DNA of 64,000 nucleotides. It comes from a virus. The translations under genes and the position numbers were made by a program. The stretch's first letter is position 1; each line of letters begins with the position of its first letter. The stretch spans positions 32,001 through 96,000 of IMG/VR virus record IMGVR_UViG_3300031673_008942; one strand, written 5' to 3'. Positions 456-45,154 of this stretch are shown here, piece by piece. The notes beneath the pieces were generated by a model. It ran no database searches. It was given only the letters and a program-made list of their open reading frames with translations, and was not told where the DNA came from.

Positions 456-1844
456 ATGGATAGGATAGCTGATGATATCCTTAAACTGGCTAGGCAATTA
501 GTTGCTGAAGAGGAAGATTCTAATTTTGCTCAAAAGGTTCAATCTCTCAGAGGCGAGGGAATGAGAAGCGTTCTTAAAAATAAGAACAAAACTTTGAAGC
601 AAGTTGGGGTATCCAAGCCGTTGCGTCCAAGCTCCATGGTCGAAGATATAATTGATACTTTGGTTTCCATAGCCCAATATAAGAGTTCCGACAGAGAACG
701 TGAATCATCAGGAAGGGCTCTTAATCCAAATATTTTACTTAAAGGGCTGAAAACATTACGAGGGAAGCGTAGAAAGCGTTTAAAGAATTTTGGAATTAAC
801 GACCAAGTTCGGACGAATACGAGGGTAATTAATTTTATCAATGATGTGGTGTTTCCTTTGCTTGAGGTCTCTTATAAAGAAGATGCCGAGCAGGCTGAAA
901 AGGATTTAGCGAAAAGGGAGACTAAGCAAGTAGACATTGGTCAGGATGTTTTACCTGCCGGGGGATTCTTTGAGCCAGTTGAAAAAGTTTTACCTGAGGT
1001 AGCGCATCAAAGAGGGCATACCAAGGAGGAGGTATATAAAGAAGCGGCCGAAGCTCAAGAGGAGATGATGGATTGGATGAATAGGGGTAAAGGAATGGAT
1101 GCAAAGTTAGGTTTGCGTCATACTTCTCCAGACCCTGAAGAATTAGCTAAGCCAGGTCCACTGCTTTTAACTGCTCCATTGAAAGGAGAAAAGAGAGCAA
1201 CTGAGAAAGTTGAATCAGATTACGATGGGGATTGGTCTCAATTAACAGATGTCGTGCGAGCAAGCGTTGCTGTAGATTCGGTTGATGAAATAGGTGTAGT
1301 CTTAGATGAGTTACGTAAGTCTGGAATGAAATTAGCGAAGCGACCTAAGGATAGGTTTGCAAACCCTACAGGTGCTGGCTATCGAGACATCTTAATGAAT
1401 GTTGAATATCCTAATGGTCATATTGGAGAGCTTCAGATTCACTTAAAGCCTATTCTGTTGGCTAAAGACGCTGGTCATGATTTGTATGAAAAAGTGAGAG
1501 AGATAGAAGCTCAGGCTAGTATAGAGGGGCGTGAAGATTTAACTGATGAAGAGCAGGTTATCGTAGACGATGCAAATGAAAAAATGAAAGAGCTTTACGA
1601 TAAGGCTTGGTTGCAATCTATTGGGCGTACCGTGGCAGGCTCTTATCATTTTGCAGTCCAGGCAGCTAAATTTTTCATGCATGGGGGCAATCCAGTTATT
1701 TGGATTAGAAATAAGTTCCCTATAATGAATGTTAAGAAAAAGACTGTGGTTGTTTATGATATGGAGAAGTTCCATAGGGAGGCAGACCCTATTAGCAGCA
1801 GAAAGTATTTAAGGGAGATGAAAAGGCGTGGTGTTTTACGATAA
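456..1844 (+). CDS. RelA/SpoT-type (alarmone synthetase-like) nucleotidyltransferase-domain protein with N-terminal amphipathic peptide
   Basis: Synthetase-like motifs in the correct order: PLKGEKRATEKV, LTDVVRAS, GYRDILMNV, GELQIH, GHDLYEKVR; GAGGT RBS. Confidence 0.8.
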   Translation: MDRIADDILKLARQLVAEEEDSNFAQKVQSLRGEGMRSVLKNKNKTLKQVGVSKPLRPSSMVEDIIDTLVSIAQYKSSDRERESSGRALNPNILLKGLKTLRGKRRKRLKNFGINDQVRTNTRVINFINDVVFPLLEVSYKEDAEQAEKDLAKRETKQVDIGQDVLPAGGFFEPVEKVLPEVAHQRGHTKEEVYKEAAEAQEEMMDWMNRGKGMDAKLGLRHTSPDPEELAKPGPLLLTAPLKGEKRATEKVESDYDGDWSQLTDVVRASVAVDSVDEIGVVLDELRKSGMKLAKRPKDRFANPTGAGYRDILMNVEYPNGHIGELQIHLKPILLAKDAGHDLYEKVREIEAQASIEGREDLTDEEQVIVDDANEKMKELYDKAWLQSIGRTVAGSYHFAVQAAKFFMHGGNPVIWIRNKFPIMNVKKKTVVVYDMEKFHREADPISSRKYLREMKRRGVLR

Positions 1845-2251
1845 TGGAAAAGATAGCTCAGAGATTGGCTGAAGATGCAATAGCTACCAGAATCGCTTTT
1901 ATAGTGGTAGGAAAGGCACGCCCGGATGATTTGTTTGCTGGAACTTTTTATGATATTCGTGAAAAAGCTAAGAAGTTGAAAAATCAGTGGTCGGATGAGG
2001 CTCAGGGGTATTTGAATAAAACTTTAATAAATGACCTTAATAATAAGAAGGTCAAAGTTTTAGATGCAAAGGTAAGTTTAGGTCAATATAAGGGCAGTAA
2101 GTTTGTTACGTCGGCAAAGCTTCAGGTTCAGGTTAAGGATAGAAAAGCGGCAGAAGCTTTGCTCACTTATTTACAATCTAAATACAGCCCAAAATATAAG
2201 CTGAAGAACTTTGATGAGGATAATAATATTGCGGACTATAACGTAAGGTAG
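1844..2251 (+). CDS. Hypothetical basic protein, possible internal virion protein
   Basis: 135-aa ORF coupled to the upstream stop (TAATG); N-terminal KIAQRLA...IATRIA peptide. Confidence 0.6.
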   Translation: MEKIAQRLAEDAIATRIAFIVVGKARPDDLFAGTFYDIREKAKKLKNQWSDEAQGYLNKTLINDLNNKKVKVLDAKVSLGQYKGSKFVTSAKLQVQVKDRKAAEALLTYLQSKYSPKYKLKNFDEDNNIADYNVR

Positions 2252-2257
2252 ATTGAG

Positions 2258-3136
2258 ATGGATAAGAAGAGGATTGCGAAAAAGCTTTTAGCTATTGCCA
2301 GGAATTTGGTGTCTGAAGCTACCGATAAGCAGGTTGAATTTGCCCAGGATTTGATTGAGCAGTTGGGCGAGAAAGGGGCTCCTGGTAAGTCGGCATTAAA
2401 GGCGATGTCTCCTGATGAGATTTCTAATCTTATTGATACTATGAAAAAGAGACGTGATGAAGGGGAGGGGCTTGCGACCGATAAGCAGGTTGGATTTGCT
2501 CAAGATTTGATTGAACAGACTGGCGGAAACGGACCCAATAAAGATTCTTTAAAGAAAATGGATAATAAAGAAATTTCCCAATTGATTGATTCCTTGAAGA
2601 GCAAGGAAGCCAGTTATCAGGTCTTTATTAGTTCTCGTGATTATGTCTCTCAAGTAAGTGACGAGATAGTTTCTATTATTGAGGATGGGAGAAAGCTCCC
2701 TGAAATTAAGGTGGAATATAACATCGAGTCTGGGCAAGTAGGTTCCCGTGATTCCATGGGTGTTCCTGAGGAGCCAAGTTGGGATGCTGGTCTTGATGAG
2801 CTTTATGTTGTTAATGATTCGGTAGTTGTTGAGGTGCCAATTTCAGATATTTTTAAGGAATTAAAATTGCGTGATTATCGGTCAGAGATTCAAAGACTGG
2901 CATTGAGTCTGCCGGATATTTTTAAGAGACTGAAAAGTTATGGGGGTTTGGATTTTACTGCCAATGTTGAGTTTGAGGGTAATGGGTCTGATTATGAGGA
3001 TAAGCTCACATTAGAAGGAAAGCCAAAGGGGCTTAAGATAAAGGGTAAGAATTTGAATATTTATTTAACTGATATTGATATTAAGAAGTCAGACAATGAT
3101 GAAATTGAAAATAATGTTATGGAGATAAATTACTAA
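2258..3136 (+). CDS. Hypothetical protein with two tandem ATDKQ...ISxLIDxLK repeats and N-terminal amphipathic peptide
   Basis: ATDKQVEFAQDLIEQ / ATDKQVGFAQDLIEQ duplication is visible in both protein and DNA. Confidence 0.7.
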   Translation: MDKKRIAKKLLAIARNLVSEATDKQVEFAQDLIEQLGEKGAPGKSALKAMSPDEISNLIDTMKKRRDEGEGLATDKQVGFAQDLIEQTGGNGPNKDSLKKMDNKEISQLIDSLKSKEASYQVFISSRDYVSQVSDEIVSIIEDGRKLPEIKVEYNIESGQVGSRDSMGVPEEPSWDAGLDELYVVNDSVVVEVPISDIFKELKLRDYRSEIQRLALSLPDIFKRLKSYGGLDFTANVEFEGNGSDYEDKLTLEGKPKGLKIKGKNLNIYLTDIDIKKSDNDEIENNVMEINY

Positions 3137-3939
3137 TGAGTGTTTTTCCTGGTACTTACATCCCCACTGGAGTGGCAAGCAGTGCTCATATGAATCATTT
3201 GATTGATGAGCTGTTGACCCCACGCTTGGCATCTTTTAGGCAGATATGTATTTATGATGAATTGGCTGTTTTATGTCCAGATAAATCTACTTGGGAGGGG
3301 ACTTTCGCTAATTGGTTGGAAGGTTTTAAATTTAGGTTTTGGAAAAACAATCAAGAGTTTGATGTTTCCTCGTTGGATTCGATTGATTATCTGTATGGCA
3401 CTTTTGTGTTTGACCCTGTCGATTTGGGTGCTGATGGGCGGACACTCGATACGATGGAAATAAGCTATGCGTTTGATTATTTTCCTGTGGCGGTTTTGGA
3501 GGGGTTGTTTAAGGCTGCAGTTCAGATTGTTAATTCGACTGCGGTAGGTCCGCCAACGAATTTTAAGATAGGTTCTAATCCTGAAGCTCCAGAATATTGG
3601 GATGGTGTTTTGGTTGATTTGGTTTTTGCTATGTGTATGGAGAAACTTTTGCTTGATTATGATTTGTGGAAGTATCGGTTAGTCTTTGCGATAGGTCCAA
3701 ATGAGGTTTATCAAGGCGGTGGTGGGGACATTACTGGCACTCTAGAGACCTTGAAGCAGAATGCAGAACAACGTGCTGAGCAGACATTGCAGAATGAAAA
3801 ATTCAAATCCGGTAATTATCTTGCTCCTCCTACTGCTGCATATTTTGCCTCCATTAGTGGAGGTGTGGGGGGAGGAATTCATGGTATTCCTTTCTTATCT
3901 GGGCGATTACGAGGATGGAAACCAAATAGTTATATTTAA
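3136..3939 (+). CDS. Probable virion neck / head-completion protein
   Basis: 267-aa ORF, translationally coupled; lies ahead of the tail genes; helical C-terminal half resembles head-tail adaptors (positional inference). Confidence 0.45.
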   Translation: MSVFPGTYIPTGVASSAHMNHLIDELLTPRLASFRQICIYDELAVLCPDKSTWEGTFANWLEGFKFRFWKNNQEFDVSSLDSIDYLYGTFVFDPVDLGADGRTLDTMEISYAFDYFPVAVLEGLFKAAVQIVNSTAVGPPTNFKIGSNPEAPEYWDGVLVDLVFAMCMEKLLLDYDLWKYRLVFAIGPNEVYQGGGGDITGTLETLKQNAEQRAEQTLQNEKFKSGNYLAPPTAAYFASISGGVGGGIHGIPFLSGRLRGWKPNSYI

Positions 3940-3948
3940 GGTGGTATT

Positions 3949-4317
3949 ATGGCAGATGAAATAACATATCAATTTCAGACAGTTTTGAATAATGGCAATC
4001 TTCAAGACCAATATTCATCTGGCTCAAGTTCGGCAGACCAGTCTAATGCTAAATTGATTAGAAATGTACAAACCATTGGTTTTGCGACACATGAGGCTTT
4101 AGAGTTAGGTGATGTGGCGACCCCAGGTTATGCGGTTTTTAAGAATCTAGATGACACGAATTTTGTCCAGATTGGTTTAGAGGTTGGTGGTACTTTTTAT
4201 CCATTTGCGAAGCTTAGTAGTGAGAACCAGGGGATGGTGCCTTTGGCGAACGTGACTTTTTACGCTCAGGCGGATAGTGCGGATGTAGAACTTTTTTATA
4301 TTATATATGATAGTTAA
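3949..4317 (+). CDS. Small beta-rich putative virion protein
   Basis: AAGGTGG RBS; 122 aa, acidic and beta-rich; structural context. Confidence 0.55.
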   Translation: MADEITYQFQTVLNNGNLQDQYSSGSSSADQSNAKLIRNVQTIGFATHEALELGDVATPGYAVFKNLDDTNFVQIGLEVGGTFYPFAKLSSENQGMVPLANVTFYAQADSADVELFYIIYDS

Positions 4318-4344
4318 AAAGCAAATCCTTTTTGGAGGTTGGTT

Positions 4345-4587
4345 ATGAAAGATATAGTGAGCAATATGGCTGAACGGATAGCTGTAGATGTTGTTGCTGC
4401 CGGTAGCGGCGACAAGGAAGAATATATGCGTTTTTTCAAGAAGAAACTTGAGAAGTACAAGGTTGACAGTCCTGCGGATTTGGAAACTGGGAAACGTAAG
4501 AAATTTTATGAAGAGGTTGATTCTGGTTGGACGTCTGATGCTGAGAGTAGTATGGCAGGTCCAAAGATTGGAAGACGCTCAAAATAA
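4345..4587 (+). CDS. Small putative internal head / prohead-core-like protein
   Basis: GGAGG RBS before ATG 4345; YMRFFKKKLEKYKVDSPADL...KKFYEEVD resembles a module I recall from T4-like head-associated proteins (recollection, unverified). Confidence 0.45.
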   Translation: MKDIVSNMAERIAVDVVAAGSGDKEEYMRFFKKKLEKYKVDSPADLETGKRKKFYEEVDSGWTSDAESSMAGPKIGRRSK

Positions 4588-4596
4588 GGAAAGATA

Positions 4597-4869
4597 ATGG
4601 GCTTTGATTTAAATGCAGAAATGAAAGAGATTGCTAATCTTATTGATGAGGCAGACCTTATCATGGCTGTGCGTAATGAAGTGAAGTCCGTTAAAGGGGC
4701 GATTGTTACAGATGGTAAGCATCAGGATAATGTTGCTTATCAAGTGATTATTCGTTGTGGGGTCGAGGATAAGAAGGTGGCAAGGCGTCTAAAAAGTAGT
4801 ATGCCAAATATTGATGTTGACAGTATAGCAACGGGGATATTAGGGGTCAATCAAAGCAGGAGGGGATAA
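4597..4869 (+). CDS. Hypothetical protein
   Basis: AAGGA RBS, 90 aa, in operon. Confidence 0.6.
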   Translation: MGFDLNAEMKEIANLIDEADLIMAVRNEVKSVKGAIVTDGKHQDNVAYQVIIRCGVEDKKVARRLKSSMPNIDVDSIATGILGVNQSRRG

Positions 4870-4872
4870 AGG

Positions 4873-5361
4873 ATGGCAAGTGATATTTCACCAACAACTG
4901 GTCAGGTGTATTACAGTGGTCCTTGGACGGATATTCAGAATGTTTTGAGGACTTTTGATATCGGAGAGGGGAAGCTTGCCAAGGTAACTCAGACTCTTGT
5001 AAATTTTTATCAGGAAACGATTGATAGAGATACGGATGCTCTTTTAGAACCTCTTTATCATGTTCCTTTGAGGGGAATGAATCAAGTACAGCCAGATGGA
5101 ACGACAAAGGTTGTTTTCCCTGGTGATGTGAAGAGGGCGACAATTTATTGGAGTGCTGGGCTGTTAATTTTAACAGAATTCAGTGGACTTGCTCAAAACA
5201 CTACAGAGCAGGCGACAAATTATATAGAAAGCTCTCGTAGGCAGATATATGACATAATCCGTTTTACCCACCGAATTCCAGGACAACGTCAAAAGAGCAA
5301 TATAAGTCGGACGATGCCTCCTACGCTTCAACCTCCTGATTTGCCTCAAGCAAATTTTTAA
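4873..5361 (+). CDS. Probable head-tail connector/adaptor protein
   Basis: YS...DI start, IDRDTDALL...YHVPL...P.DVKRAT...AG pattern as in Mu gp36 / HK97 gp6-like connectors. Confidence 0.55.
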   Translation: MASDISPTTGQVYYSGPWTDIQNVLRTFDIGEGKLAKVTQTLVNFYQETIDRDTDALLEPLYHVPLRGMNQVQPDGTTKVVFPGDVKRATIYWSAGLLILTEFSGLAQNTTEQATNYIESSRRQIYDIIRFTHRIPGQRQKSNISRTMPPTLQPPDLPQANF

Positions 5362-5370
5362 GGAGGTAGC

Positions 5371-5688
5371 ATGATAAGATATGCGAAAGAGCTACTGAGC
5401 ATAGCGAAAGATGTTATTCCCGATATTGAATATGAGTTTGTTTTAGGTGAAGACTATCGAATTCTTGATGAGATATTTTCTAATTTTAATAGGTATATTT
5501 CCCGAATAAAGCATAATGAGGGATTTGAGACTACTTTGGTTCGTTATGATGGAGATGACTCTATGATTGTTGGAGTTGGAATCAGTGACCATCCTCATAA
5601 GGAAGCGATTTTACGAGAATTGGATAAGTATGTAAAAGGTATGGCAAAGAAGCTAAATGTAGAAATGAGAGAAGATTATGTATACTAA
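5371..5688 (+). CDS. Hypothetical protein with N-terminal amphipathic peptide
   Basis: AAGGAGGT RBS; starts MIRYAKELLSIAKDVI. Confidence 0.65.
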   Translation: MIRYAKELLSIAKDVIPDIEYEFVLGEDYRILDEIFSNFNRYISRIKHNEGFETTLVRYDGDDSMIVGVGISDHPHKEAILRELDKYVKGMAKKLNVEMREDYVY

Positions 5689-7630: not shown

Positions 7631-8725
7631 ATGGGTATGGGTTACCAAGGATTCGTCAAGTTCTATGAGACTGGACCAAGTTCAGACCCAATAGTTCTTT
7701 TGACCACAGGAGCAAGTGTTAACTTGGTTCTTGAGCCAATCTACAGTACTTCAGTTTGGGGTGCAGGTTGGTATAATGCTGCGACAACAGCACATTACGC
7801 AGATAACGCAATTAGATTCGAAGGTAATGTTGACTTCGAAATGCAAGCATCAGATGCCGTTTGGGATTTGATGGGTGATTGGATTGTTAATGACCGTGCT
7901 TACCCACGCTCTATTGATATTTCACCTGATGGTGCTCGTGTTTATCATTACCTGACAACAGGTGCATATAACGCTAATTATGACTTGAATGGTGCATGGA
8001 ATACATCTGCATCCTTCAGTACTTCAGAAGGGTCATTCGTGACTGTTTCTGCTGGTGTTGTAGCTCTTGACCGTACTGAGACTGACCCTGCCGGTGGCAC
8101 GGACTTCTCAGATTACAGCTATATTCAGCAGAAAACTGGTGTTGTAGCCGGTGACTGTACAGAGCTAGCTTTAACCAACCCATTGAACCCTGGCGGTAAC
8201 AATGTGGACCCAATCCCATACTGGCGTACAAACGCTCAGTTGTTGACAGGTACTTATAGTTCTCCATTTACTGGTGGTGCTGTTCCTCAGACTGGATTGG
8301 AAACGGTTGAGTGGTCTGTTGATGTAACTCAGAATCAGGTGATTCTCTATACTGCTAATGGTACTCGTTTACCAACGGCGTTATTGCAGGGTCCGATGGA
8401 CGTAACAGGGAACTTGGTTCTCTATAATGAAGATGGTGTTTTTGACCCAATTATTGGTCCAAGTGGTACTGGTACATTGACTTCTCCATTCATGTTCGCT
8501 GAGAATACATGGTTCAGAGTATCAATCGCTCGTGGTGTAGACCCAACGGTCTACATGGAAGTTCCTGCGGTTGTTATTGAGTCTGATGACTACAGTATTA
8601 CAGGACAGGATGCGGTAACGAATCGTGGATTCGGTATCAAGGGTCTTGGTGGACGTTGTAATGGTACAGTTACTCTTCCTCCATTCATCATGTCTGATAG
8701 TGCTGGTAGTTTCGTTGCTCCATAA
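7631..8725 (+). CDS. Probable major tail tube protein (paralog 1)
   Basis: Strong AAGGAGGT RBS; high-expression-type codon use (TTC, AAC, CGT); MGYQG start, EWSVDVTQ...P...GPMDVTGNL tube-like pattern. Confidence 0.65.
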   Translation: MGMGYQGFVKFYETGPSSDPIVLLTTGASVNLVLEPIYSTSVWGAGWYNAATTAHYADNAIRFEGNVDFEMQASDAVWDLMGDWIVNDRAYPRSIDISPDGARVYHYLTTGAYNANYDLNGAWNTSASFSTSEGSFVTVSAGVVALDRTETDPAGGTDFSDYSYIQQKTGVVAGDCTELALTNPLNPGGNNVDPIPYWRTNAQLLTGTYSSPFTGGAVPQTGLETVEWSVDVTQNQVILYTANGTRLPTALLQGPMDVTGNLVLYNEDGVFDPIIGPSGTGTLTSPFMFAENTWFRVSIARGVDPTVYMEVPAVVIESDDYSITGQDAVTNRGFGIKGLGGRCNGTVTLPPFIMSDSAGSFVAP

Positions 8726-8746: not shown

Positions 8747-9628
8747 TTGGCGATTGGTTATGAAGGTTATGTGACGTTAAAGGTTGATGCTACGGAAGAT
8801 TTGGCACTTTGCACAGGTGCCTCCGTACCGAAGACCCGTGTTCGATTGGAAAGTAGTTCCGGTTATGGTGGTCAAATCAATTCTCCGGTTTCGGAGATTG
8901 GTATTGGCTTGCCTCGGAATTATGATTTTGATGAATACAGCGGAAGCATAAACTTTGAATTGACTGAAGATTTTTTAGTCAACCAGATGAAAGAATGGTT
9001 GTTTGACCGACAGAAGAAGGGTGTTGTTACTCTTTCAAGTCGGGACGGTAACGAGCAATTATTCAATTCATCTTATTGGAATAACCTTTCAATATCAGCG
9101 ACAGAAGGTGGTGTTCTTGAGGGTTCTATTGGGTTTGTAGCCGAGACGATAAGTAATTACGACATTGGTGGTGACTATATCGGCAATAAAATTGGTCAGG
9201 GCTTCCTTTGTAATCCAGGGTCATTGAATATTCCAGCTCCGTTAAATGCAGATAGCAATTTATCACCCATACCCTACTGGAATAGTTCAATTATCGTGGA
9301 TGGAACTTTACGAGAATTCAACAGTTGGAGTTTAGATTTCAACCAAGAAGTTGTGAAGTTCTATGCTTGCGAGCACAATACAACTCCTCAGGCACCAAAG
9401 TACATTGCCGTCGGACCCATGACAGCCACTTTTTCAGGAGACTTCATGTTTGTTGATTCAACGACATGGACGTTTCCTGATTATGTCTCAACACTGGTTG
9501 TGAATATTGGTGGTGCATCCATCTCCATGGCTGATTTAGAGAGTTTGACAACGAATGATGCAGTACAGGGGCCAGATTCATTGACTCCAGTTTCTGTAGA
9601 GTATGCGGTTTATCAGCTAGTCGCTTAA
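8747..9628 (+). CDS. Tail tube protein paralog 2
   Basis: TTG start with GAGGT RBS; shares GYEGYV, PIPYW, SWSLDFNQ, GPMTATFSG blocks with 7631..8725. Confidence 0.6.
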   Translation: MAIGYEGYVTLKVDATEDLALCTGASVPKTRVRLESSSGYGGQINSPVSEIGIGLPRNYDFDEYSGSINFELTEDFLVNQMKEWLFDRQKKGVVTLSSRDGNEQLFNSSYWNNLSISATEGGVLEGSIGFVAETISNYDIGGDYIGNKIGQGFLCNPGSLNIPAPLNADSNLSPIPYWNSSIIVDGTLREFNSWSLDFNQEVVKFYACEHNTTPQAPKYIAVGPMTATFSGDFMFVDSTTWTFPDYVSTLVVNIGGASISMADLESLTTNDAVQGPDSLTPVSVEYAVYQLVA

Positions 9629-9788
9629 GTTTAGCTGTGACAAGTCTGTATAATAAATAGACTTGGTAATATGAAATGAGAATTATATGAAAGATAAGCA
9701 CAGGATAGTACTTTGTCATACCCGTTTAAAATTATGGGTATTTTGGACTTTGGACTTCTGTGCTTTCGTGTTTTAAAGGAGAAAATTA

Positions 9789-10280
9789 ATGGCTAAGACA
9801 ATCGAATCTAAGAATAAAAATAAGCGAGGAGGCAAAGAAGAGGATAGGGTTGATGTCCGCTTAATGCAACCTGGCAAATATGAGGTTTCACCTGATGATA
9901 CCTTTACCATTGATATCTATCTTCAAATAAAAGAGAAGAGGTGGATTCTGGTTGAGGAAAGTGAAGAAGAAGATGTCTTTCATGAAGAGGTAGTAATGAA
10001 AATGTGGACCTATAATGACAGTGTTGAATTGCGGAAGATGGCGACCTCATATGACCAGATGAAGCGACTACACATGATTGACCAAGATTCTTTGAATAGA
10101 CTGAAGATTCAAAAGTTCTTGGTTTCATGGACTTTTGGTAGGGATAATGAGAGGCTGAAGTTGCATCATCATAATAAGACGTTAACCGATGAGTCTTGGG
10201 CTGCGGTTTCGAAATTGCAACCAAATATTTTGGAATACATAATTCAAAAAATGAATGCGGTTTATGAGTATAACGGTTGA
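9789..10280 (+). CDS. Tail assembly chaperone-like protein (paralog 1)
   Basis: AAGGAG RBS; TY.D...LRK...LVSWTF...L.PNIL pattern shared with 10264 and 11807; lies between tube and tape measure genes. Confidence 0.55.
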   Translation: MAKTIESKNKNKRGGKEEDRVDVRLMQPGKYEVSPDDTFTIDIYLQIKEKRWILVEESEEEDVFHEEVVMKMWTYNDSVELRKMATSYDQMKRLHMIDQDSLNRLKIQKFLVSWTFGRDNERLKLHHHNKTLTDESWAAVSKLQPNILEYIIQKMNAVYEYNG

Positions 10281-11018: not shown

Positions 11019-11792
11019 ATGGCAGATGATACTAAAAGATTAGGATATGGCGGTAGTGCCGAGATTGATGGTGAGCAGGTTCTCATCACCTCTGGTGGTT
11101 TTAATTCTGCCACATCTATTAGTTATCTTCAGATGCTTGGCTTGCAGCCAGTGACAGATAGTCGGTCAAAGGTAAAGCATGCAGATGGGGCAACTGCTTA
11201 TAGCGGCGAGTTATCATTAGATGTGACTGATAGTTTTTTAAATATCTTGACTACTTCACGGATTTTGTCCCGTGGTTATATGTTCAAGGTGGGTATTGAT
11301 GATGGAGAGGATGGACAAGAATTAGATAATTGTTTAATAACGAGCCTTAGTTTACAAGGAACGTTTGGTGGCTTGGTGACATGTTCGATAAGTTTTGTCA
11401 GTGCCGAGGCTCCAACAAGCAGTGCAAGTGTAGCGAACGCTTTTATAGGAGATGCAGAGCCTTTAGGGTATTGGTATTCAGGTAATACAGATGTTAGAGA
11501 GTGGTCTTTCTCAATGAATCAAGATGTTCAGCCGGTTTATACGAACGAGAACACTCCGATTCCGAGATACCTAAAGATTGGACTTTTTGATTTTAATTTG
11601 GGTGTGACAACCTATGAGCAAGTGATTAACACAAGTGTGATAAACATTGCGACAAGGACGTTCACATTAACTGGAGACTCGGCGAGCGAGGGTTTCCAAT
11701 TCGCAGGTGTTACAGACTTAGGGTTGTACACCAATGCGTTTGAAACAGCAGCCTCCATTTCGGTGGGGTCTGGTGGCACTATTATAACATAA
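11019..11792 (+). CDS. Tail tube protein paralog 3
   Basis: LGYGGSA, PLGYW, EWSFSMNQ, PRYLKIG blocks match the other two tube paralogs. Confidence 0.6.
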   Translation: MADDTKRLGYGGSAEIDGEQVLITSGGFNSATSISYLQMLGLQPVTDSRSKVKHADGATAYSGELSLDVTDSFLNILTTSRILSRGYMFKVGIDDGEDGQELDNCLITSLSLQGTFGGLVTCSISFVSAEAPTSSASVANAFIGDAEPLGYWYSGNTDVREWSFSMNQDVQPVYTNENTPIPRYLKIGLFDFNLGVTTYEQVINTSVINIATRTFTLTGDSASEGFQFAGVTDLGLYTNAFETAASISVGSGGTIIT

Positions 11793-12523: not shown

Positions 12524-15500
12524 ATGCCAAGAGAATTTGAAGACTTTTCAGATGACGTAAGTAAGGGAACGGATAAGGTAAAGAATAGCCTTGACGGAAT
12601 CTCTAAGGCGGCTGCTGATGCGGATAAGGCTCATAATAAGTTGAGCGATTCGCAGAAGGCAGGTACTGCTATTGCTGATAAGTATGCAAAATCTCTAGAG
12701 AAGGTCAGTGCTGGCACTTTCGCAGTTGGCGAGGCTAGTAAGAAAGCTTATAAGGGTCTTGAAAAACTTGCTTCCATTAAAGGGAATGGTCTCTCAGGAA
12801 TCGAGGCAAACATTACTGGTATTACTAGTGCTATCTCAAATATGGATAGCGATGTTAGTAGGGCAATTGACCTTTTGGAGAGATTGTCAAATCAAGAAGT
12901 TGAGATAAAAATACCTGAACCTGACTTCGAGTTTGTTAAGGATTTCAAGAAGGGTACTGATTCGATTAATGCCGACCTTATAATGTTGGAGAAGACTGCC
13001 TCCAAACTGGGTAAGCAACAGTTTTTGGAATTGAGTATCGAGCTTGGAGGTCGAGAAGCGATTTCTTCCTTCCTTGATGAGATGGATGATTTGGAGAAGA
13101 AGGCTTTCCAAGCACAGGTAGACCTAAAGGGATTAGACGGAGCAGTACAGGATTTGGCTCAAAGTTCTCCTGTTCTCGCTGCTAATCTGATGAAGGCAAG
13201 AGAGGCGGCTGATGAGTTGGCACGGTCGTCCTCGACCCTTTCTGGGGAGATTGATAAGGCGGCCAGTGTTACAGACTTGGCTCGTAAAAGATTCCAAGAA
13301 GGAGCTAATGAGGCAAAAGGTTTTGCAGGAGGGCTTGGGGAAACGAGCGGGAAAGCAGTTGGAGCAGGCGTGGCGGTCTTTTACCTTGCTGAGAAATTGG
13401 CAGGATTGATAGATGAGTTTAAAGGGGCGGCTCTTGAGGCTGCAACTTTTAGACGTGAGACAGAGGCGTTAGAGCACGCTCTTGGAGGAATCGTAGTTCC
13501 AGGTGAGTTAGAAGATATCCGACAAAGACTTGGTTTGACTCGTGAACAGGCTACGGAGTTTTTCAAGGTTCTTGAAGCTGGAGCAACAAGTGGTGTCGCT
13601 AGCATTGATAAGTTAGCGGATGCAGGTGAGAAACTGAGGAACACTTTTGGTGGAGACCAGACAGACCGCTTGAGAGAGTATGTTGATTTGTTGAAAGAGA
13701 TTCCATCTTTGGATGCAGATTTAAGTATTAGTGCTGATTTGGATGACCAAGCGGCAGCCCTATTCGCATTGGCCGAAGCAGGGAAGATTCAAACGGTTAT
13801 TGATTTACAGGCAGCCGGTCTTGCTGGTGGCATACAAATTGAGGCGAGTAAGGAAGAGGTTAATTTATTAAACGTGGCTCAGAAGACCGAGCAACAGGTG
13901 CAGAATATCAAAGATTTTCTGGTTGGGAAACTTTTCCCGACTTGGGGTCCAGTTATTGGAGAGGTGGCTTCCGGGGTGACCAAGGTTATTGGATTACTAG
14001 GAGGAGCATTAGCACTATTTGGGGCGATGAAGATATTTCTTGGTAGTCAGATTGTGGCTCAGAATGCAACCACAAAGGCAGTTCTTTTAGGAGGACTGGG
14101 TGGTAAGGCAGGAAAGTTGGGTAAGGCAGGGGCTTTAAGGAAAGGATTTTCTCGTGGAGGGGGAGGCATTGGCGGAGTTAAACGGGGCGTATCTGGGGCG
14201 ATAAAGGCAACTGCTTTTACGAAGGCTACGACCAAGTTGGGGAAGGTAGCTCAGATTGGGGCTAAGGGGCTCTTGAAGGTTGGGAATGCTTCCAAGATTG
14301 CTGGTGGAGGGATGTTGAAGTTGGGTTCTCAATTTGCTAAAGCCGGGGGGATTTGGGGGGCAGTTGCACTTGTGGTGGGGATAGGAGCCACAGCGTTAGC
14401 AGATAAATTGGAAGAATCAGGGAACCGAGGAGGTGCTTCAGTTGCTAGATTTTCTGGAGAGCTATTAAAGGCAGGTGGAACGATTGCCTCTTTTGCTGCC
14501 ATGGGTAGTGTTATTCCTGGTGTGGGGACTGCTATTGGAGCAATAGCAGGGGTAGCAGTTGTTGCCATATCTTCCCTTGGAAGCTTAGGCGATGTTGCTT
14601 CTGGATTGGGGCAGGAACTTAATTCTACCGTTGACTCAGGGAAAAAATATGCAGGGTGGCTTCAGTCAACTGGTAAGGCATTAGACTGGATGGGGAAGAA
14701 GACTAGCAAGGCAGGTGCTGTCGTTGGTGACTGGGGCGATTTGATAAAATTTGGTACTAGTAAGGTTTGGGATGGGGTCAAAGCATTGGGTGGATGGATT
14801 AAAGGTTTGGGAGAGAGTGCAATTTATGGCGACGAATATGCTGCTTCTCTGAAAAAAGCTCGTGAGGCTCAGGGTGAATCTAATAAGTATGGTGCCGTAA
14901 TTGCATCGGCTCGGTCCAAGATGGCTAAATCTAGCGATAAAGTATCCAAGGCAATGCTGGAGCTGCAGAAGAATACCCAGGAATCAGGGATGGCTCTTCA
15001 ACAACAATTGCAAAGAACCAAGGCTGAATTTGAAGGAATAAAGTTTAGACTCTTTGAAAGAAATTTAGAAATTGCTTCTGATAGATTGTCTTTATTGTCT
15101 GATATCGGAGGGGATACTGGTAATTTCGAAAGAGCTATAGAATCAACCACTAGTGCTTTAAATGAGAAGTTTAAAAAGCTTACTGATTCTCTAGGTAAGA
15201 GAAGGTCTGATATTCTTAAAGATGGAGAGCTTAGTGCTTCAGGTCGTAAGGCTGCTCTTAATGACCTTTATGCTAAAGAAGTTTCTGCTGTTCGAGAATT
15301 GGTGGATGGGGTAAATAGTGTCGTTGATGCTCTTATGAAAACTCCATCTATTGTACTGAGGGGGTTGAAAGATGAGTTGGAGAAAGGTCGATTTGATATT
15401 CAGCTTGATGCAGGAGCTTTAGGTATTGATGATTTTACTAAAGGGTTAGATAGTCAATTTGATAATGCTTTTACTAATTTAACTGAGAGTTTTGAAGCGG

Positions 15501-27570: not shown

Positions 27571-29316
27571 ATGGCATATTTTAAGATTGACAAGGGTTTG
27601 ATTAAGTTTCATGACGTATACAAGGTGAGGCGGAAGATTCAGGAGGTCGGCGGGGTTTTCCGTGCTGATGAGAGTGTGTGGGTTCTCGCTTTTACCATAG
27701 AGAATTTAGAATTTGTTATTGATGAGATTCCTAATCTTTTTGTGCCAGACGGAATTGATGAGCTTGTTATTAATCAGCAGAAGAAAGAGAGGAAGCTTAC
27801 TGAACTTAAGAAGGCTGCCAAGGATAATATCGAGATAAGACTGAAGATTCCTGGATTAAAGGCTATTTTGTATCCCTATCAGAAAATGGGAGTGATGTAT
27901 AGCCTTGTTAGTGGAAGTGGTATGCTGATAGCAGATGAGATGGGTCTTGGGAAGTCTTTTCAAGCATTAGCATTGGCATTGATGTTAAAACATCAGGGAA
28001 GGGCAAAGAGCGCATTGTTGGTAACGCCTGCTTCTTTGAAGTTTAACTGGCCTTTAGAGATTGAGAAATTTACTGATGAAAAATACGTAGTGATTGATGG
28101 AACCCCGGAGCAACGTATTGCTCAGTGGTTGCGGAAAGATGTGTTTTTTTATGTGGTGAACTATGAATTACTTTTGGAGGATTTATTTGGTGGCAAGGAA
28201 CCAAAGGAAAAGGATGATGAAACTTCAGAGCAAAGAGTGCGAAGAGAGAAGAGGCAATCCAAAATAGCAAAAAGGGAACGGATACTTTCTCCTTTGAGGG
28301 ATAAAGTGTGGGATTTCATATCGGTAGATGAGATACATAATATAAAGAATCCTGGAAGTAAGCGAAGTAAGAATATTAAGAGTTTGAAGGGTGATTTTAG
28401 GATTGGCTTATCGGGCACTCCTTTGGATGGGAAGTTGGAAGAGTTGCATAGTGTTATGGAGTTTATTATGCCGGGATTATTGGGAAGCCGAACTCGTTTT
28501 CTTCAGAAGCATGCTGTTACTAATTGGAGTGGGGATGTTGTTTCCTATAAGAATATAAATGAGGTTAGTGAGAAGATTGCTCCTTTCTTTATTAGGAGGC
28601 TGAAGAAGAATGTTTTGAAAGACCTGCCTGACAAGATATATGAGAATAGGATTATTGAGTTAAGCCCGGCTGAGAGAAAAATATATAATGATATTAAGAA
28701 GAAGAGACATGAGATAACGGAAGATGCGGAGGCCATGGTTCTGACGATTAGGTGTAAGCAATTTCTGGACAGTCCTGAGTTAATTGAAGAGGAGGGTGAG
28801 TCTTCCAAATTAGAGTCGTTTAAGGAGGTAATTCAGGAAGTTGTTATAGAGAATATGCACAAGGTTATCATTTTCAGCCAGTATAAAAAGATGACTGATA
28901 TTCTTGTAAGAGTATTAGAAGAAATGGGTTTGAAGTGTCTTTACATTCATGGAGAAGTTCCTAAGGCTAAGAGAGCTCAGATGCAGGAGCAGTTTAATAC
29001 GGATGATTCAATTGACTGTATTATAGGGACGGAAGCGATGTCCACAGGGCTTAATTTTATTGGGGGCGATATCGTTATTAATTATGATGATAATTGGGCT
29101 CCTGCCATTATGCGTCAACGTGAAGACCGTGCTCACAGAATTGGTCAAAAGAATACAGTAACTGTAATAAATTTCATTTGTCGTGATACAATAGAAGAGC
29201 GTATTCGAGAGCGTCTCTATGAGAAGGAAATTGTCTCCAATGAAGTATTGGGGGATGGTTTAGATGAATATGTTTTAAAACGTTTAGGACCAAAAGATAT
29301 ATTAGGACTTTTATAA
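27571..29316 (+). CDS. SNF2-family helicase/ATPase
   Basis: LYPYQ, ADEMGLGKS, DEIH, LSGTPL, RRLKK, QREDRAHRIGQ. Confidence 0.92.
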   Translation: MAYFKIDKGLIKFHDVYKVRRKIQEVGGVFRADESVWVLAFTIENLEFVIDEIPNLFVPDGIDELVINQQKKERKLTELKKAAKDNIEIRLKIPGLKAILYPYQKMGVMYSLVSGSGMLIADEMGLGKSFQALALALMLKHQGRAKSALLVTPASLKFNWPLEIEKFTDEKYVVIDGTPEQRIAQWLRKDVFFYVVNYELLLEDLFGGKEPKEKDDETSEQRVRREKRQSKIAKRERILSPLRDKVWDFISVDEIHNIKNPGSKRSKNIKSLKGDFRIGLSGTPLDGKLEELHSVMEFIMPGLLGSRTRFLQKHAVTNWSGDVVSYKNINEVSEKIAPFFIRRLKKNVLKDLPDKIYENRIIELSPAERKIYNDIKKKRHEITEDAEAMVLTIRCKQFLDSPELIEEEGESSKLESFKEVIQEVVIENMHKVIIFSQYKKMTDILVRVLEEMGLKCLYIHGEVPKAKRAQMQEQFNTDDSIDCIIGTEAMSTGLNFIGGDIVINYDDNWAPAIMRQREDRAHRIGQKNTVTVINFICRDTIEERIRERLYEKEIVSNEVLGDGLDEYVLKRLGPKDILGLL

Positions 29317-42024: not shown

Positions 42025-42617
42025 ATTCTAAGTATATCTCTCTGAAAAGAGATGCAACAATTATTCGGGTCGAGGATGGTGGATATAGCTTAGAATTGGG
42101 AGAAATGAATCCTGTGATTGTGGATGAGTTTTCTGAAGAGGTTTTAGAAAGGGAATTGCATCCGGTAATTTGGGAACCATTCGCGGGACATACTGGTGAG
42201 AGCAATGCTCAAAATATGGCTGAAGATGTAGGGGTTCGTTTAATTAGTTATGATTTGGAGCCTTCCGATAATAGAGTTTTGTGTCGGGATAGTACCGAGA
42301 TTGGCCCAGAGCAGCTTTGTGGAGGGGTTATCTTTCACCCTCCTTATTTTGGTTCGGTGTTTTCAGAAAAGGATGGAGAAGTTTCTCGAAATTATGATAA
42401 GTATGAATACATAAAGAAGTTGGGTAAGACTGTTAATTTTTGTAGAGAATATCTTCAAAAAGGTGGATTAGTCTGCGCAGTCGCTCGTGATTATAGAAAT
42501 CATGGTAAGCGTATAAGATTGGATGAGTGGTTTTTGGAGTTGTTTGAGAATAAGTCTTTTAATTTGGTGGATGTATGGCTGAGTGAGCCAGATGTTGTAT
42601 TAATATTGGAGAAATAA
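42009..42617 (+). CDS. Compact amino-(N6A/N4C)-methyltransferase-fold protein
   Basis: WEPFAG (motif I-like) followed by FHPPY (motif IV-like); likely start GTG 42021. Confidence 0.6.
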   Translation: MEACVNSKYISLKRDATIIRVEDGGYSLELGEMNPVIVDEFSEEVLERELHPVIWEPFAGHTGESNAQNMAEDVGVRLISYDLEPSDNRVLCRDSTEIGPEQLCGGVIFHPPYFGSVFSEKDGEVSRNYDKYEYIKKLGKTVNFCREYLQKGGLVCAVARDYRNHGKRIRLDEWFLELFENKSFNLVDVWLSEPDVVLILEK

Positions 42618-43222: not shown

Positions 43223-43621
43223 GTGTTTGATAAAACTGGAAATTTACCTTTGCGGTCTCGTAGAGATTATGCCAAAGAAGACCAGACCAATAAGCCGCAA
43301 GACTATACACAAGAAGAACTTATGGAAAAGGCAAAAGAGACCACTGGGGTAGTCCCCGCAGGTTGGCGGCTTCCTCAGGGGGATATTATGGCTTCAAATG
43401 ATTACTTAAACACTCCTCCTACTAAGTTAAATAGAGACATTAAAAAGACCAAAAATAAGCATGAGAAGGCGGAAATGGAAGAAGCCTTGGATGCTTGGAG
43501 GACGGTAGTCCCAGGTCCATTTATTAAATCAAGTGAGGCTAATGTAAGGCAGGCTTATGAGCTTGTGGCATTGGCGAAGAGTATTATTGCCAATGAGCAT
43601 AATTTTAATGTAGGAGTATGA
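43223..43621 (+). CDS. Hypothetical protein with the amphipathic peptide at its C-terminus
   Basis: GTG start with AGGAGG RBS; ends VRQAYELVALAKSIIANE. Confidence 0.65.
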   Translation: MFDKTGNLPLRSRRDYAKEDQTNKPQDYTQEELMEKAKETTGVVPAGWRLPQGDIMASNDYLNTPPTKLNRDIKKTKNKHEKAEMEEALDAWRTVVPGPFIKSSEANVRQAYELVALAKSIIANEHNFNVGV

Positions 43622-43622
43622 A

Positions 43623-44891
43623 ATGAGTGATGATAAAAACTTGCCTCGTAGTCAATGGGCTACCTCTAAACCAGGAACTGAATCTGAGCCTGTAGTTGAG
43701 CCTGTAGTTGAGCCTGTAGTTGAGCCTGTAGTTGAAGATATTATTAATGATAGTGGGATGGATGATTTTATGATTGATATGCCAGATATCCCTGAGATTG
43801 ATGATTCATCTGAGCCAACTGGAATCGTTGAAGATGAGTGTGATACTGCTTTTGATTTTTGTTTTATTGGAACAGGGCAGGGTGGTAGCCGTGTTGCTGA
43901 ATCTTTCTGGAAGTTAGGGTATCGTCGAGTTTGCTGTATCAATACAACAAATCAAGACCTTACTGCTATTGATATCCCGGAAGCTAATAAACTTGTTATT
44001 GGTGATGGGGGAGCTGGTAAGGAAATGGCAAAAGGCGAAGAAGCTGCAAGGACAAATTATGAGAATATTTATGATTTGATGAAACGCTGTTTCGGAAAGA
44101 AGTTTGATAGGATTTTTGTTTGTATCGGGGCTGGTGGTGGGACTGGCAGCGGAACAGGTGATACAGTTATCAATATTGCTCATGATATAGCTCAGTCTTC
44201 CAAGATAGAGGAAGAAGGTGGAACATCAGCGGTTGGGGTGATTGCCTCGCTTCCAAAGACTGCTGAAGGAGTAAAGGTTAATGCAAATGCTCACGTTGTT
44301 ATGGAGAGTTTATTTGCTCAAGCTGATGCAAAGACTATCAGTCCATTGGTTATCTTGGATAATGAGAAGATTGGAGAGGTTTTCCCGAATGTGACTGTTA
44401 ATAAGTTTTGGGATGTGGCTAACCGTAATTTGGCTAGTTTGTTTAATCTGTTTAATACGATTGCAACTAAGGATAGTCCTTATACTACTTTTGATAGAGC
44501 AGACCTGAAAGATATATTGGATGGAGGCACTTTAAGTTTTGGAGCTTGTCCAATCAAGCAGTGGCAGAAGCTAACGGATATTAGTTTTTCTATTCGTGAT
44601 AACCTGACCAGAAATGTTTTGGTTGCTGGTTTTGATTTTAAGAAGGCTCAAAAAGCTGCTTGTGTTTTTATTGGTCATCCAGATGTGTTGGGCAATATCC
44701 CTCAAAATTTCTTAGAACATGGTTTTGAAATGCTTTCCCGTACAATGGCTGATGACAGTGTTGTTCATCGTGGTATTTACCCCGGTGGTAGAGAAGGGAT
44801 TGTTGTATATACGATGATGGGAGGCTTAGGTCGTCCTGAGGAACGGATGAGCGAGATTGCTAAAATAGGCAGAATTAATTCAGGAGAATAA
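43623..44891 (+). CDS. Tubulin/FtsZ-superfamily GTPase (PhuZ/TubZ/CetZ-like)
   Basis: FIGTGQGGSRV, INT, GAGK, signature GAGGGTGSG, LDNEK, FDRADL. Confidence 0.9.
   Translation: MSDDKNLPRSQWATSKPGTESEPVVEPVVEPVVEPVVEDIINDSGMDDFMIDMPDIPEIDDSSEPTGIVEDECDTAFDFCFIGTGQGGSRVAESFWKLGYRRVCCINTTNQDLTAIDIPEANKLVIGDGGAGKEMAKGEEAARTNYENIYDLMKRCFGKKFDRIFVCIGAGGGTGSGTGDTVINIAHDIAQSSKIEEEGGTSAVGVIASLPKTAEGVKVNANAHVVMESLFAQADAKTISPLVILDNEKIGEVFPNVTVNKFWDVANRNLASLFNLFNTIATKDSPYTTFDRADLKDILDGGTLSFGACPIKQWQKLTDISFSIRDNLTRNVLVAGFDFKKAQKAACVFIGHPDVLGNIPQNFLEHGFEMLSRTMADDSVVHRGIYPGGREGIVVYTMMGGLGRPEERMSEIAKIGRINSGE
43686..43733 (+). repeat. Perfect coding 12-bp repeat GAGCCTGTAGTT x4 (EPVV)
   Basis: Directly visible. 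Confidence 0.9.
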
Positions 44892-44893
44892 TT

Positions 44894-45154
44894 ATGGGTA
44901 CTTATAGACCAAACGTTACAGATAAAGAACAAGCTGATATAGAAGCAGCAGCGGATGATTCTGCGATTCGTCTTCAGTGGTTTAATGGCAAGAAAGTGCA
45001 AGAGGGTGAAACCAAGCTTATTAAGGCTTACGATAATCAAAATTCCACTAATGATAATGGAAGCCCGAATGACACTGTAAAATCATTAAATGGCAGTACT
45101 ATTGGAAGTCATAATGATAATATTAGTAGTTTTGCGACTCCTGGTAAGGCTTAG
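44894..45154 (+). CDS. Hypothetical protein
   Basis: AGGAG RBS, 86 aa. Confidence 0.6.
   Translation: MGTYRPNVTDKEQADIEAAADDSAIRLQWFNGKKVQEGETKLIKAYDNQNSTNDNGSPNDTVKSLNGSTIGSHNDNISSFATPGKA

Follow-up and report, generated by a model that had tools for sequence, protein, structure and literature searches.

We analyzed a stretch of 64,000 nucleotides (the window; bases 32001-96000 of the 113.6-kb IMG/VR contig IMGVR_UViG_3300031673_008942, referred to as genome G000) in which otherwise unrelated proteins carry a similar short amphipathic helix at one of their ends. We call this helix the tag and the proteins that bear it its carriers; positions are those of the window unless a genome or locus is named. 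CheckV rates the contig 34% complete, and its source is therefore taken to be a giant phage of about 300 kb. Almost every gene of G000 lies on the same strand. An HK97-type major head protein (MCP; phrog_2522, E = 2e-53) and a prohead protease (phrog_18299, E = 2e-12; G000 9018-10025) are encoded upstream of the window, which itself contains the genes for PolIII-alpha, RecA, DnaB and a TubZ-type tubulin (43623-44891; Pfam Tubulin, E = 3.6e-13, and TubZ-like_C). G000 also has a tmRNA and a Ro60 gene, the latter kept in relatives (tblastn). A first-pass annotation of the sequence had placed four strong copies of the helix in the open reading frames (ORFs) beginning at 456, 2258, 5371 and 43223, and all four were located there (Table 1).

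The first carrier resembles the toxin Tas1 (PDB 6OX6, E = 3.6e-7) and matches Pfam RelA_SpoT at E = 8e-4, which is under the curated cut-off; the closest cultured homolog of this domain comes from Bordetella phage PHB04, where it forms the C-terminal part of gp034 (RelA_SpoT, 47% identity), and the gene for gp034 lies immediately 3' of the portal gene. The stop codon of ORF 456 overlaps the start of ORF 1844 (ATGA); the latter is not obviously an immunity gene, because it is kept in relatives independently of ORF 456. In the second carrier the duplicated segment behind the tag (about 52 aa, ATDKQV.FAQDLIEQ...) matches phrog_987, and for the protein as a whole we found no Pfam match and no usable match in an Atlas search. 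The third carrier occupies a conserved location ahead of a 190-aa neck-module gene, and its orthologs in two metagenome loci (L041 and L091) retain a diverged tag. In its AF2 model the tag helix (aa 4-13) has pLDDT below 50 and the body (aa 19-103) pLDDT of 80-90; Foldseek matches the body to generic ferredoxin folds only. The fourth copy stands at the other end of its protein, eight residues short of the C-terminus, in an ORF directly upstream of TubZ. Its positional counterpart in a relative (G002, 156571-156744, after the ortholog of the gene at 42617) has a tag-like helix at its end too.

Table 1. Copies of the tag, their carriers and adjoining features of the window
Feature	Position	Strand	Location or content	Remarks
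Tag copy 1, RIADDILKLARQLVAE	462..509	+	ORF 456-1844, aa 3-18	16.4 bits; the other seeds are its top genome-wide matches
Cargo 1, 462 aa	456..1844	+	N-terminal tag and Tas1-like, RelA/SpoT-type (p)ppApp-synthetase domain (aa ~231-339)	
Tag copy 2, RIAKKLLAIARNLVSE	2270..2317	+	ORF 2258-3136, aa 5-20	20.8 bits
Cargo 2, 292 aa	2258..3136	+	Tag, two ~52-aa tandem repeats (phrog_987), C-terminal domain without assigned function	
Tag copy 3, RYAKELLSIAKDVIPD	5377..5424	+	ORF 5371-5688, aa 3-18	21.7 bits
Cargo 3, 105 aa	5371..5688	+	Tag helix and small ferredoxin-like alpha/beta body	
Tag copy 4, RQAYELVALAKSIIAN	43547..43594	+	ORF 43223/43322-43621, aa 109-124 of 132	20.9 bits
ORF 1844	1844..2251	+	Not a tag carrier	Profile score -0.4 bits
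Region with variants 4345 and 4597	4339..4869	+	No tag carriers	Profile scores <=0.2 bits
Head-to-tail adaptor (neck) protein	3136..3939	+		AF2 model from 8 sequences; kept beside tagged genes in relatives (tblastn synteny)

Reality and anatomy of the shared helix

When all ORFs of the 113.6-kb genome were searched with BLOSUM62, each of the four 16-mers retrieved the other three as its top three matches, with pair scores (41, 39 and 35) above the 95th percentile of genome-wide shuffle maxima (30-32); the next-best match after the four seeds, at genome position 110066, is N-terminal as well. A profile built from 11 tags found 18 further copies scoring at least 8 bits in G000 and two close relatives that were used whole (G001, 139.6 kb, and G002, 253 kb), with none in 30 shuffles and none in the reversed proteome. 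After iteration, a six-frame scan of five contigs returned 70 copies at or above the same score, compared with 0.3 expected. A degenerate DNA pattern for the tag matched six IMG/VR stretches (three of them in G001 and G002) and 62 stretches of metagenome contigs (loci labeled L below), and the pattern-matched loci gave 142 profile matches, the majority of them unconstrained by the pattern. Three loci of the genome collection (L036-L038) and three metagenome loci (L048, L050 and L084) proved to be tandem 'AKEL/AKEF' repeats or chance matches and do not belong to the tag system.

The misgiving attached to the helix at first pass, that the motif might be no more frequent than in shuffled amphipathic helices, did not come true: shuffles of each protein that preserve its hydrophobic/polar pattern gave 0 matches, as against 32 in the real proteins, and the motif is thus far more specific than a generic amphipathic helix. 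Three weaker variants listed along with the strong copies (at 1844, 4345 and 4597) were not sustained as tags, their profile scores being 0.2 bits or less. The likeness is one of protein rather than DNA, as had been claimed: every synonymous codon occurs at the conserved Ala, Leu, Arg and Glu positions, even in one and the same genome. Because synonymous codons vary freely at the conserved residues, selection is on the peptide, and this degeneracy rules out a DNA-level explanation (a recombination site or RNA element).

Once the tag is stripped off, the 70 carrier bodies fall into 59 BLASTP clusters, largely bearing out the earlier description of the carriers as unrelated. The majority are small proteins without recognizable toxin domains. 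Among the others are an ADP-ribosyltransferase (in locus L047; ADPrib_exo_Tox, E = 2e-12, and the Alt-like phrog_802), a SprT-like protein, a protein with WGR and double zinc-ribbon domains and an HD-domain CCA-adding enzyme; a type IB topoisomerase, with a weak tag, is a possible further carrier. Chance similarity, or a single paralogous family of which the N-terminus evolves slowest, is accordingly a most improbable account of the helix. Some small members of gene arrays could be diverged paralogs, and a few of the BLAST clusters have two to four members, but the shuffle controls are empty, the tag stands at both protein termini, and the tagged folds differ among themselves (ADP-ribosyltransferase, Tas1-like, SprT, CCA-adding enzyme, zinc ribbons and ferredoxin-like). 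The notion of a modular tag on unrelated proteins thus holds, given its terminal position, selection at the level of the peptide, the number of bodies that BLAST tells apart (59 of 70) and the separate, low-confidence helix that AF2 models for ORF 5371.

Over 179 non-identical copies the consensus is M-[ND]-x-x-[RK]-[VI]-A(96%)-[KR]-E(93%)-L(90%)-[VL]-x-[IVL]-A(97%)-[KR](94%)-[ED]-L(83%)-x-[AGS]. This corresponds to a two-heptad core, (V/I)-A-(K/R)-E-L-(V/L)-x / (I/V)-A-(K/R)-(E/D)-L-x-(A/G/S), with I/V and L at its center, Ala alongside, and Lys and Glu at fixed positions; its usual start is five residues after the initiator Met. Beyond the tag no column is conserved, with G, S, D and E ranking among the most frequent residues. 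Of the 70 copies in the five contigs, 55 are N-terminal, six C-terminal and nine ambiguous (several of the nine have a GTG or TTG start shortly upstream). With the metagenome loci included, at least 10 copies are C-terminal, ending 0-8 residues short of the stop codon. A few reading frames hold two tags (L046:561-1544, L097:2686-3417 and L098:5676-6713), the second again after M-N-x-x, and resemble either an in-frame fusion of adjacent tagged genes or the use of an internal start.

This anatomy bears on three further accounts of the helix, none of which we think likely. The hydrophobic moment is high (0.6-0.75), as would suit an amphipathic helix lying in the plane of a membrane, but acidic residues at two nearly invariant positions, and Ala at two invariant ones, stand in or beside the apolar face, the net charge is mostly only +1 to +2 (+4 in the copy at 2258), aromatic anchors are lacking, and conservation this specific is atypical of membrane helices; we regard membrane binding as very unlikely. 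A signal for stability or handling, in which a protease or chaperone of the Clp, Lon or GroEL type reads the helix as a terminal degron or recognition element and so times the life of the protein, appears to us improbable, if less so. It would agree with the conserved M-N/D start and the fixed register to the initiator Met (exactly four residues ahead of the first tag position in 100 of the 179 copies), and degrons in general occur at either end of proteins. Against it, conservation goes far beyond what known degrons need, a core protein of the head module is tagged (see below), and the tag peptide of the phage tmRNA (AKNILAFPGLAQEKLAA) is unrelated to the helix.

The third account dispenses with a separate receptor: the helices would associate with one another, forming two-heptad coiled coils or bundles that join the tagged proteins in a mixed oligomer or condensate. 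The heptad periodicity, with its I/V and L core and Ala/Val alongside, fits this idea, as do proteins with two or three tag-like helices (L028, 8962-9747; G002, 97349-97987), the in-frame tandem tags of L046 and L097, and the existence of genome-specific flavors of the tag. Within-genome identity of tags is 0.477, compared with 0.404 between genomes (the maximum difference under permutation being 0.029), and distinct flavors can be read directly, for example MDRIRVA..ELVG in L081 and (M/V)NxKQVAQELVKIAKSI in L090. Two heptads are, on the other hand, short for a stable coiled coil, and self-association could go together with capsid loading by way of a tagged core protein; as the whole explanation we consider it unlikely, though not as poorly placed as the preceding two.

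The tag is confined to a sub-clade. The nearest database phages by MCP identity are the uncultured LR745208 (68%) and two cultured phages, Tunturiibacter phage Tunturi_5 (46%) and Bacillus phage G (36%), and the tag is absent from the whole genome of Tunturi_5 and from 480 of the 485 kb of LR745208 and was not seen in the 40 kb scanned of the phage G head region. These tag-less relatives have in common with the tag-bearing phages only the MCP, the protease, a decoration protein and a few others, and phylogenetic profiling across them singled out no receptor. We found no published description of the helix in the searchable literature, and no Pfam or PHROGs family covers the tag itself.

Gene neighborhoods and the partner of the helix

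Tagged genes tend to stand in tandem arrays: about 27 are consecutive in G001 (72-91 kb), and loci L041, L066, L081, L090 and L093 have arrays of 8-11 each. Mapping of G000 proteins by tblastn shows recurrent hot spots for such arrays: in the head module by the prohead protease, among the neck genes, in the interval from Ro60 to the neck module, and near recombination genes. In the window the hot spot among the neck genes surrounds ORF 3136; the 20 best matches of its model in VIA-align (Z 6-9.3) are without exception portal adaptors or neck proteins of phages, T4 gp13 among them. The only syntenic core genes with the helix are those flanking the prohead protease. One of them, lying between the protease gene and a scaffold-like gene, encodes a small, 111-aa acidic protein that bears the helix in all genomes examined: at its C-terminus in G000, G001 and L028, at its N-terminus in L097, and twice internally in G002. 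Immediately upstream of the protease lies a second family, in which the tag is combined with an 'EFPTQDA...' motif. The fuller form of this motif, 'EFPTQDA..KY.K.H..ADKSKH', follows right after the tag in L028:8962-9747, L047, L052, L058, L085, L097 and L098, and in L047 it stands ahead of the ADP-ribosyltransferase domain. The C-terminus of the prohead protease itself was considered as a tag carrier and rejected, its likeness to the tag being faint (3 bits or less).

We consider it highly probable that the tag is a portable terminal address, a helix read by some common partner. The partner is most likely part of the assembling head, judging from the tandem arrays, the tagged core protein encoded next to protease and scaffold, the tagged genes among the neck genes, and the Alt-like and Tas1/MuF-like cargoes, all of which lead us to favor a head component. 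To the resulting interpretation, in which the helix would be a portable capsid-cargo address, an analog of the T4 capsid-targeting sequence (CTS) that is unrelated to it in sequence and can stand at either terminus, we assign a probability of roughly 0.45. One conserved partner in the procapsid would bind the helix through its Ala-centered hydrophobic face and its fixed Lys and Glu; with binding inside the procapsid, tagged proteins would be built into the head and delivered with the DNA to the next cell. Candidate partners are a scaffold or core protein and the MCP, which is unusually conserved (the G000 protein, 12671-13567, is 94% and 88% identical to those of G001 and G002, while other shared proteins are 27-76% identical). 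No other shared protein of the sub-clade comes near it in conservation, and this makes the MCP a natural candidate for a receptor that would match the tag in this respect, a consideration that can do no more than suggest it.

Processing of the tag by the prohead protease is speculation. The cleavage logo of gp245, the protease of giant phage SPN3US, is A-X-E with V at P4 (PMC10052503), and the two internal (V/I)-A-x-E motifs of the tag match it; the protease may cut at these motifs and so free the cargo. Cleavage 'after the terminal Ala', as proposed at first pass, finds no counterpart in the alignment, in which no residue past the tag is conserved.

Several observations weigh against a capsid address. 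With no conserved residue past the tag, there is no defined maturation site; the protease is left unmatched by Pfam S77 (PF03420), in a search of which the control was equally silent, and has no sequence match in PDB. Tags also occur outside the structural modules, as in the small protein ahead of TubZ (43223, replication module) and at the hot spot near recombination genes (109.5-111 kb in G000, 188-191 kb in G002); the CCA-adding enzyme and possibly the type IB topoisomerase are tagged; the neck module is not the only neighbor of the largest arrays, which border on the Ro60/tmRNA module too; and 25-35 cargo species per genome is a large number. It is because of the tags outside structural modules, the tagged RNA- and DNA-handling enzymes and the number of carriers that self-association, or a hub outside the virion, retains some room.

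Such a hub, of phage or host origin, would be an intracellular structure to which the helix docks the tagged proteins, concentrating an enzyme tool-kit in the infected cell. TubZ filaments, the Ro60/tmRNA module, a factory for replication or RNA repair, and host machines such as the ribosome or RNA polymerase are all conceivable in this role, each as tentatively as the hub itself, which we hold to be doubtful but the most credible of the alternatives. The adjacency of the largest arrays to the Ro60 gene, the tagged nucleic-acid enzymes just named and the C-terminally tagged small protein of the replication module, before TubZ, would all be expected of it, and the conserved charges and Ala face suit a specific protein partner of any kind. 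The syntenic core genes with the helix, however, are found only about the prohead protease, the arrays on the Ro60 side are contiguous with the neck module in G000 and G001, and the ADP-ribosyltransferase and (p)ppApp-synthetase cargoes parallel virion-delivered enzymes of other phages.

If the tag is a capsid address, the injected 'first-strike' proteome of an uncultured clade of giant phages becomes readable from sequence; an unrelated lineage would have arrived on its own at the T4 solution of one conserved tag with swappable cargoes, by means of another peptide of greater flexibility; and foreign proteins could be loaded into large HK97-type capsids with a natural tag of very small size. 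Should the partner be something other than the capsid, conservation of the peptide across so many unrelated proteins points to a central hub in these phages.

Small paralogs with a 'TYRxNVTDKEQ' N-terminus (44894-45154 in the window, 28436-28723 in the genome and 3137-3376 in L026) are kept in relatives, one of them after TubZ and one after Ro60; a TubZ homolog was not found in G001 or G002 by tblastn. Three tail-module proteins (7631-8725, 8747-9628 and 11019-11792) share a similar 'G-Y-x-G' N-terminal start and are apparent paralogs, with no PHROGs match.

Comparison with known systems

A short helical element at a protein's end is also what brings proteins into the procapsid of P22: the C-terminal helix-turn-helix of the P22 scaffolding protein binds coat and is sufficient for this purpose. 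The acidic, scaffold-neighboring protein described above likewise ends in the tag. The P22 element occurs on one protein only and is a helix-turn-helix, whereas the tag is a single helix found across a family of phages.

The cargo-loading peptides of bacterial microcompartments (BMCs) and encapsulins offer a second parallel. These are short terminal peptides (an amphipathic helix in the case of BMCs), N- or C-terminal and joined by a flexible linker, that direct enzymes of unrelated kinds into a protein shell; the HK97 fold is common to encapsulin shells and phage capsids. An amphipathic helix of about 18 aa at either terminus, with a linker to the cargo, is how BMC encapsulation peptides are recognized, and the tag has this form. 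The sequences are unrelated, and the shell would here be a DNA-filled virion; BMC shell genes (PF00936) had no match in the incomplete contigs G000, G001 and G002, whereas control genomes matched. Slightly more tentatively than the capsid address as such, we envisage a tailed-phage equivalent of encapsulin or microcompartment loading, in which a 15-residue helix, at whichever terminus, would bind the nearly invariant MCP or a core protein and load 10-35 interchangeable effectors per genome into the procapsid for co-injection, new cargo being acquired by body swaps behind the tag. The effectors would, with the same reservation, include the Tas1-like (p)ppApp synthetase, the Alt-like ADP-ribosyltransferase, the SprT protease and the CCA-adding enzyme.

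In MuF polymorphic toxins, a conserved N-terminal module is presumed to place variable C-terminal toxins in the capsid; the toxins carry ADP-ribosyltransferase and adenosine 3'-pyrophosphokinase (RelA/SpoT-like) domains, and the MuF position is after the portal gene (PMC5576092, PMC12226406). Injected polyvalent proteins are a system compared alongside them (PMC7824862). Toxin types of both kinds, ADP-ribosyltransferase and RelA/SpoT-like, are found on tagged proteins, and the closest cultured homolog of the ORF 456 domain, PHB04 gp034, occupies the MuF position. The trafficking module here, unlike the MuF domain of about 100-300 aa, is a helix of 15 residues, and most tagged carriers are small and without recognizable toxin domains. 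Phage_Mu_F (PF04233) has no match in G000, G001 or G002, and there is no MuF match among 123 tagged proteins.

The closest analogy is with the internal proteins of T-even phages, the loci of which encode diverse proteins that share only a conserved CTS, by which they are encapsidated into the scaffolding core (PMC3012670). As cited in PMC10052503, Mullaney and Black (1996) place the CTS of T4 on IPI-III and Alt. Here as in T4, a short, mostly N-terminal peptide is the sole common part of diverse, fast-changing small proteins encoded in arrays, an ADP-ribosyltransferase is among the cargo, the genes are linked to those for the prohead core and protease, and the tag contains a Glu-ending motif of the kind cut by giant-phage and T4-type prohead proteases. 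There are also differences. Compared by eye, the 179-copy consensus has no likeness to MKTYQEFIAE beyond a hydrophobic-Ala-x-Glu element; the helix is longer (15-19 aa, two heptads), stands at the C-terminus as well, and does not end in a conserved cleavage site. It belongs to another lineage (an HK97-like MCP related to that of phage G, and a protease identified only through phrog_18299), and there are 10-35 carriers per genome. What would be new, if our interpretation is right, is thus a CTS-like form of cargo addressing by a helix that shares no sequence kinship with the CTS and can serve at either end of the cargo.

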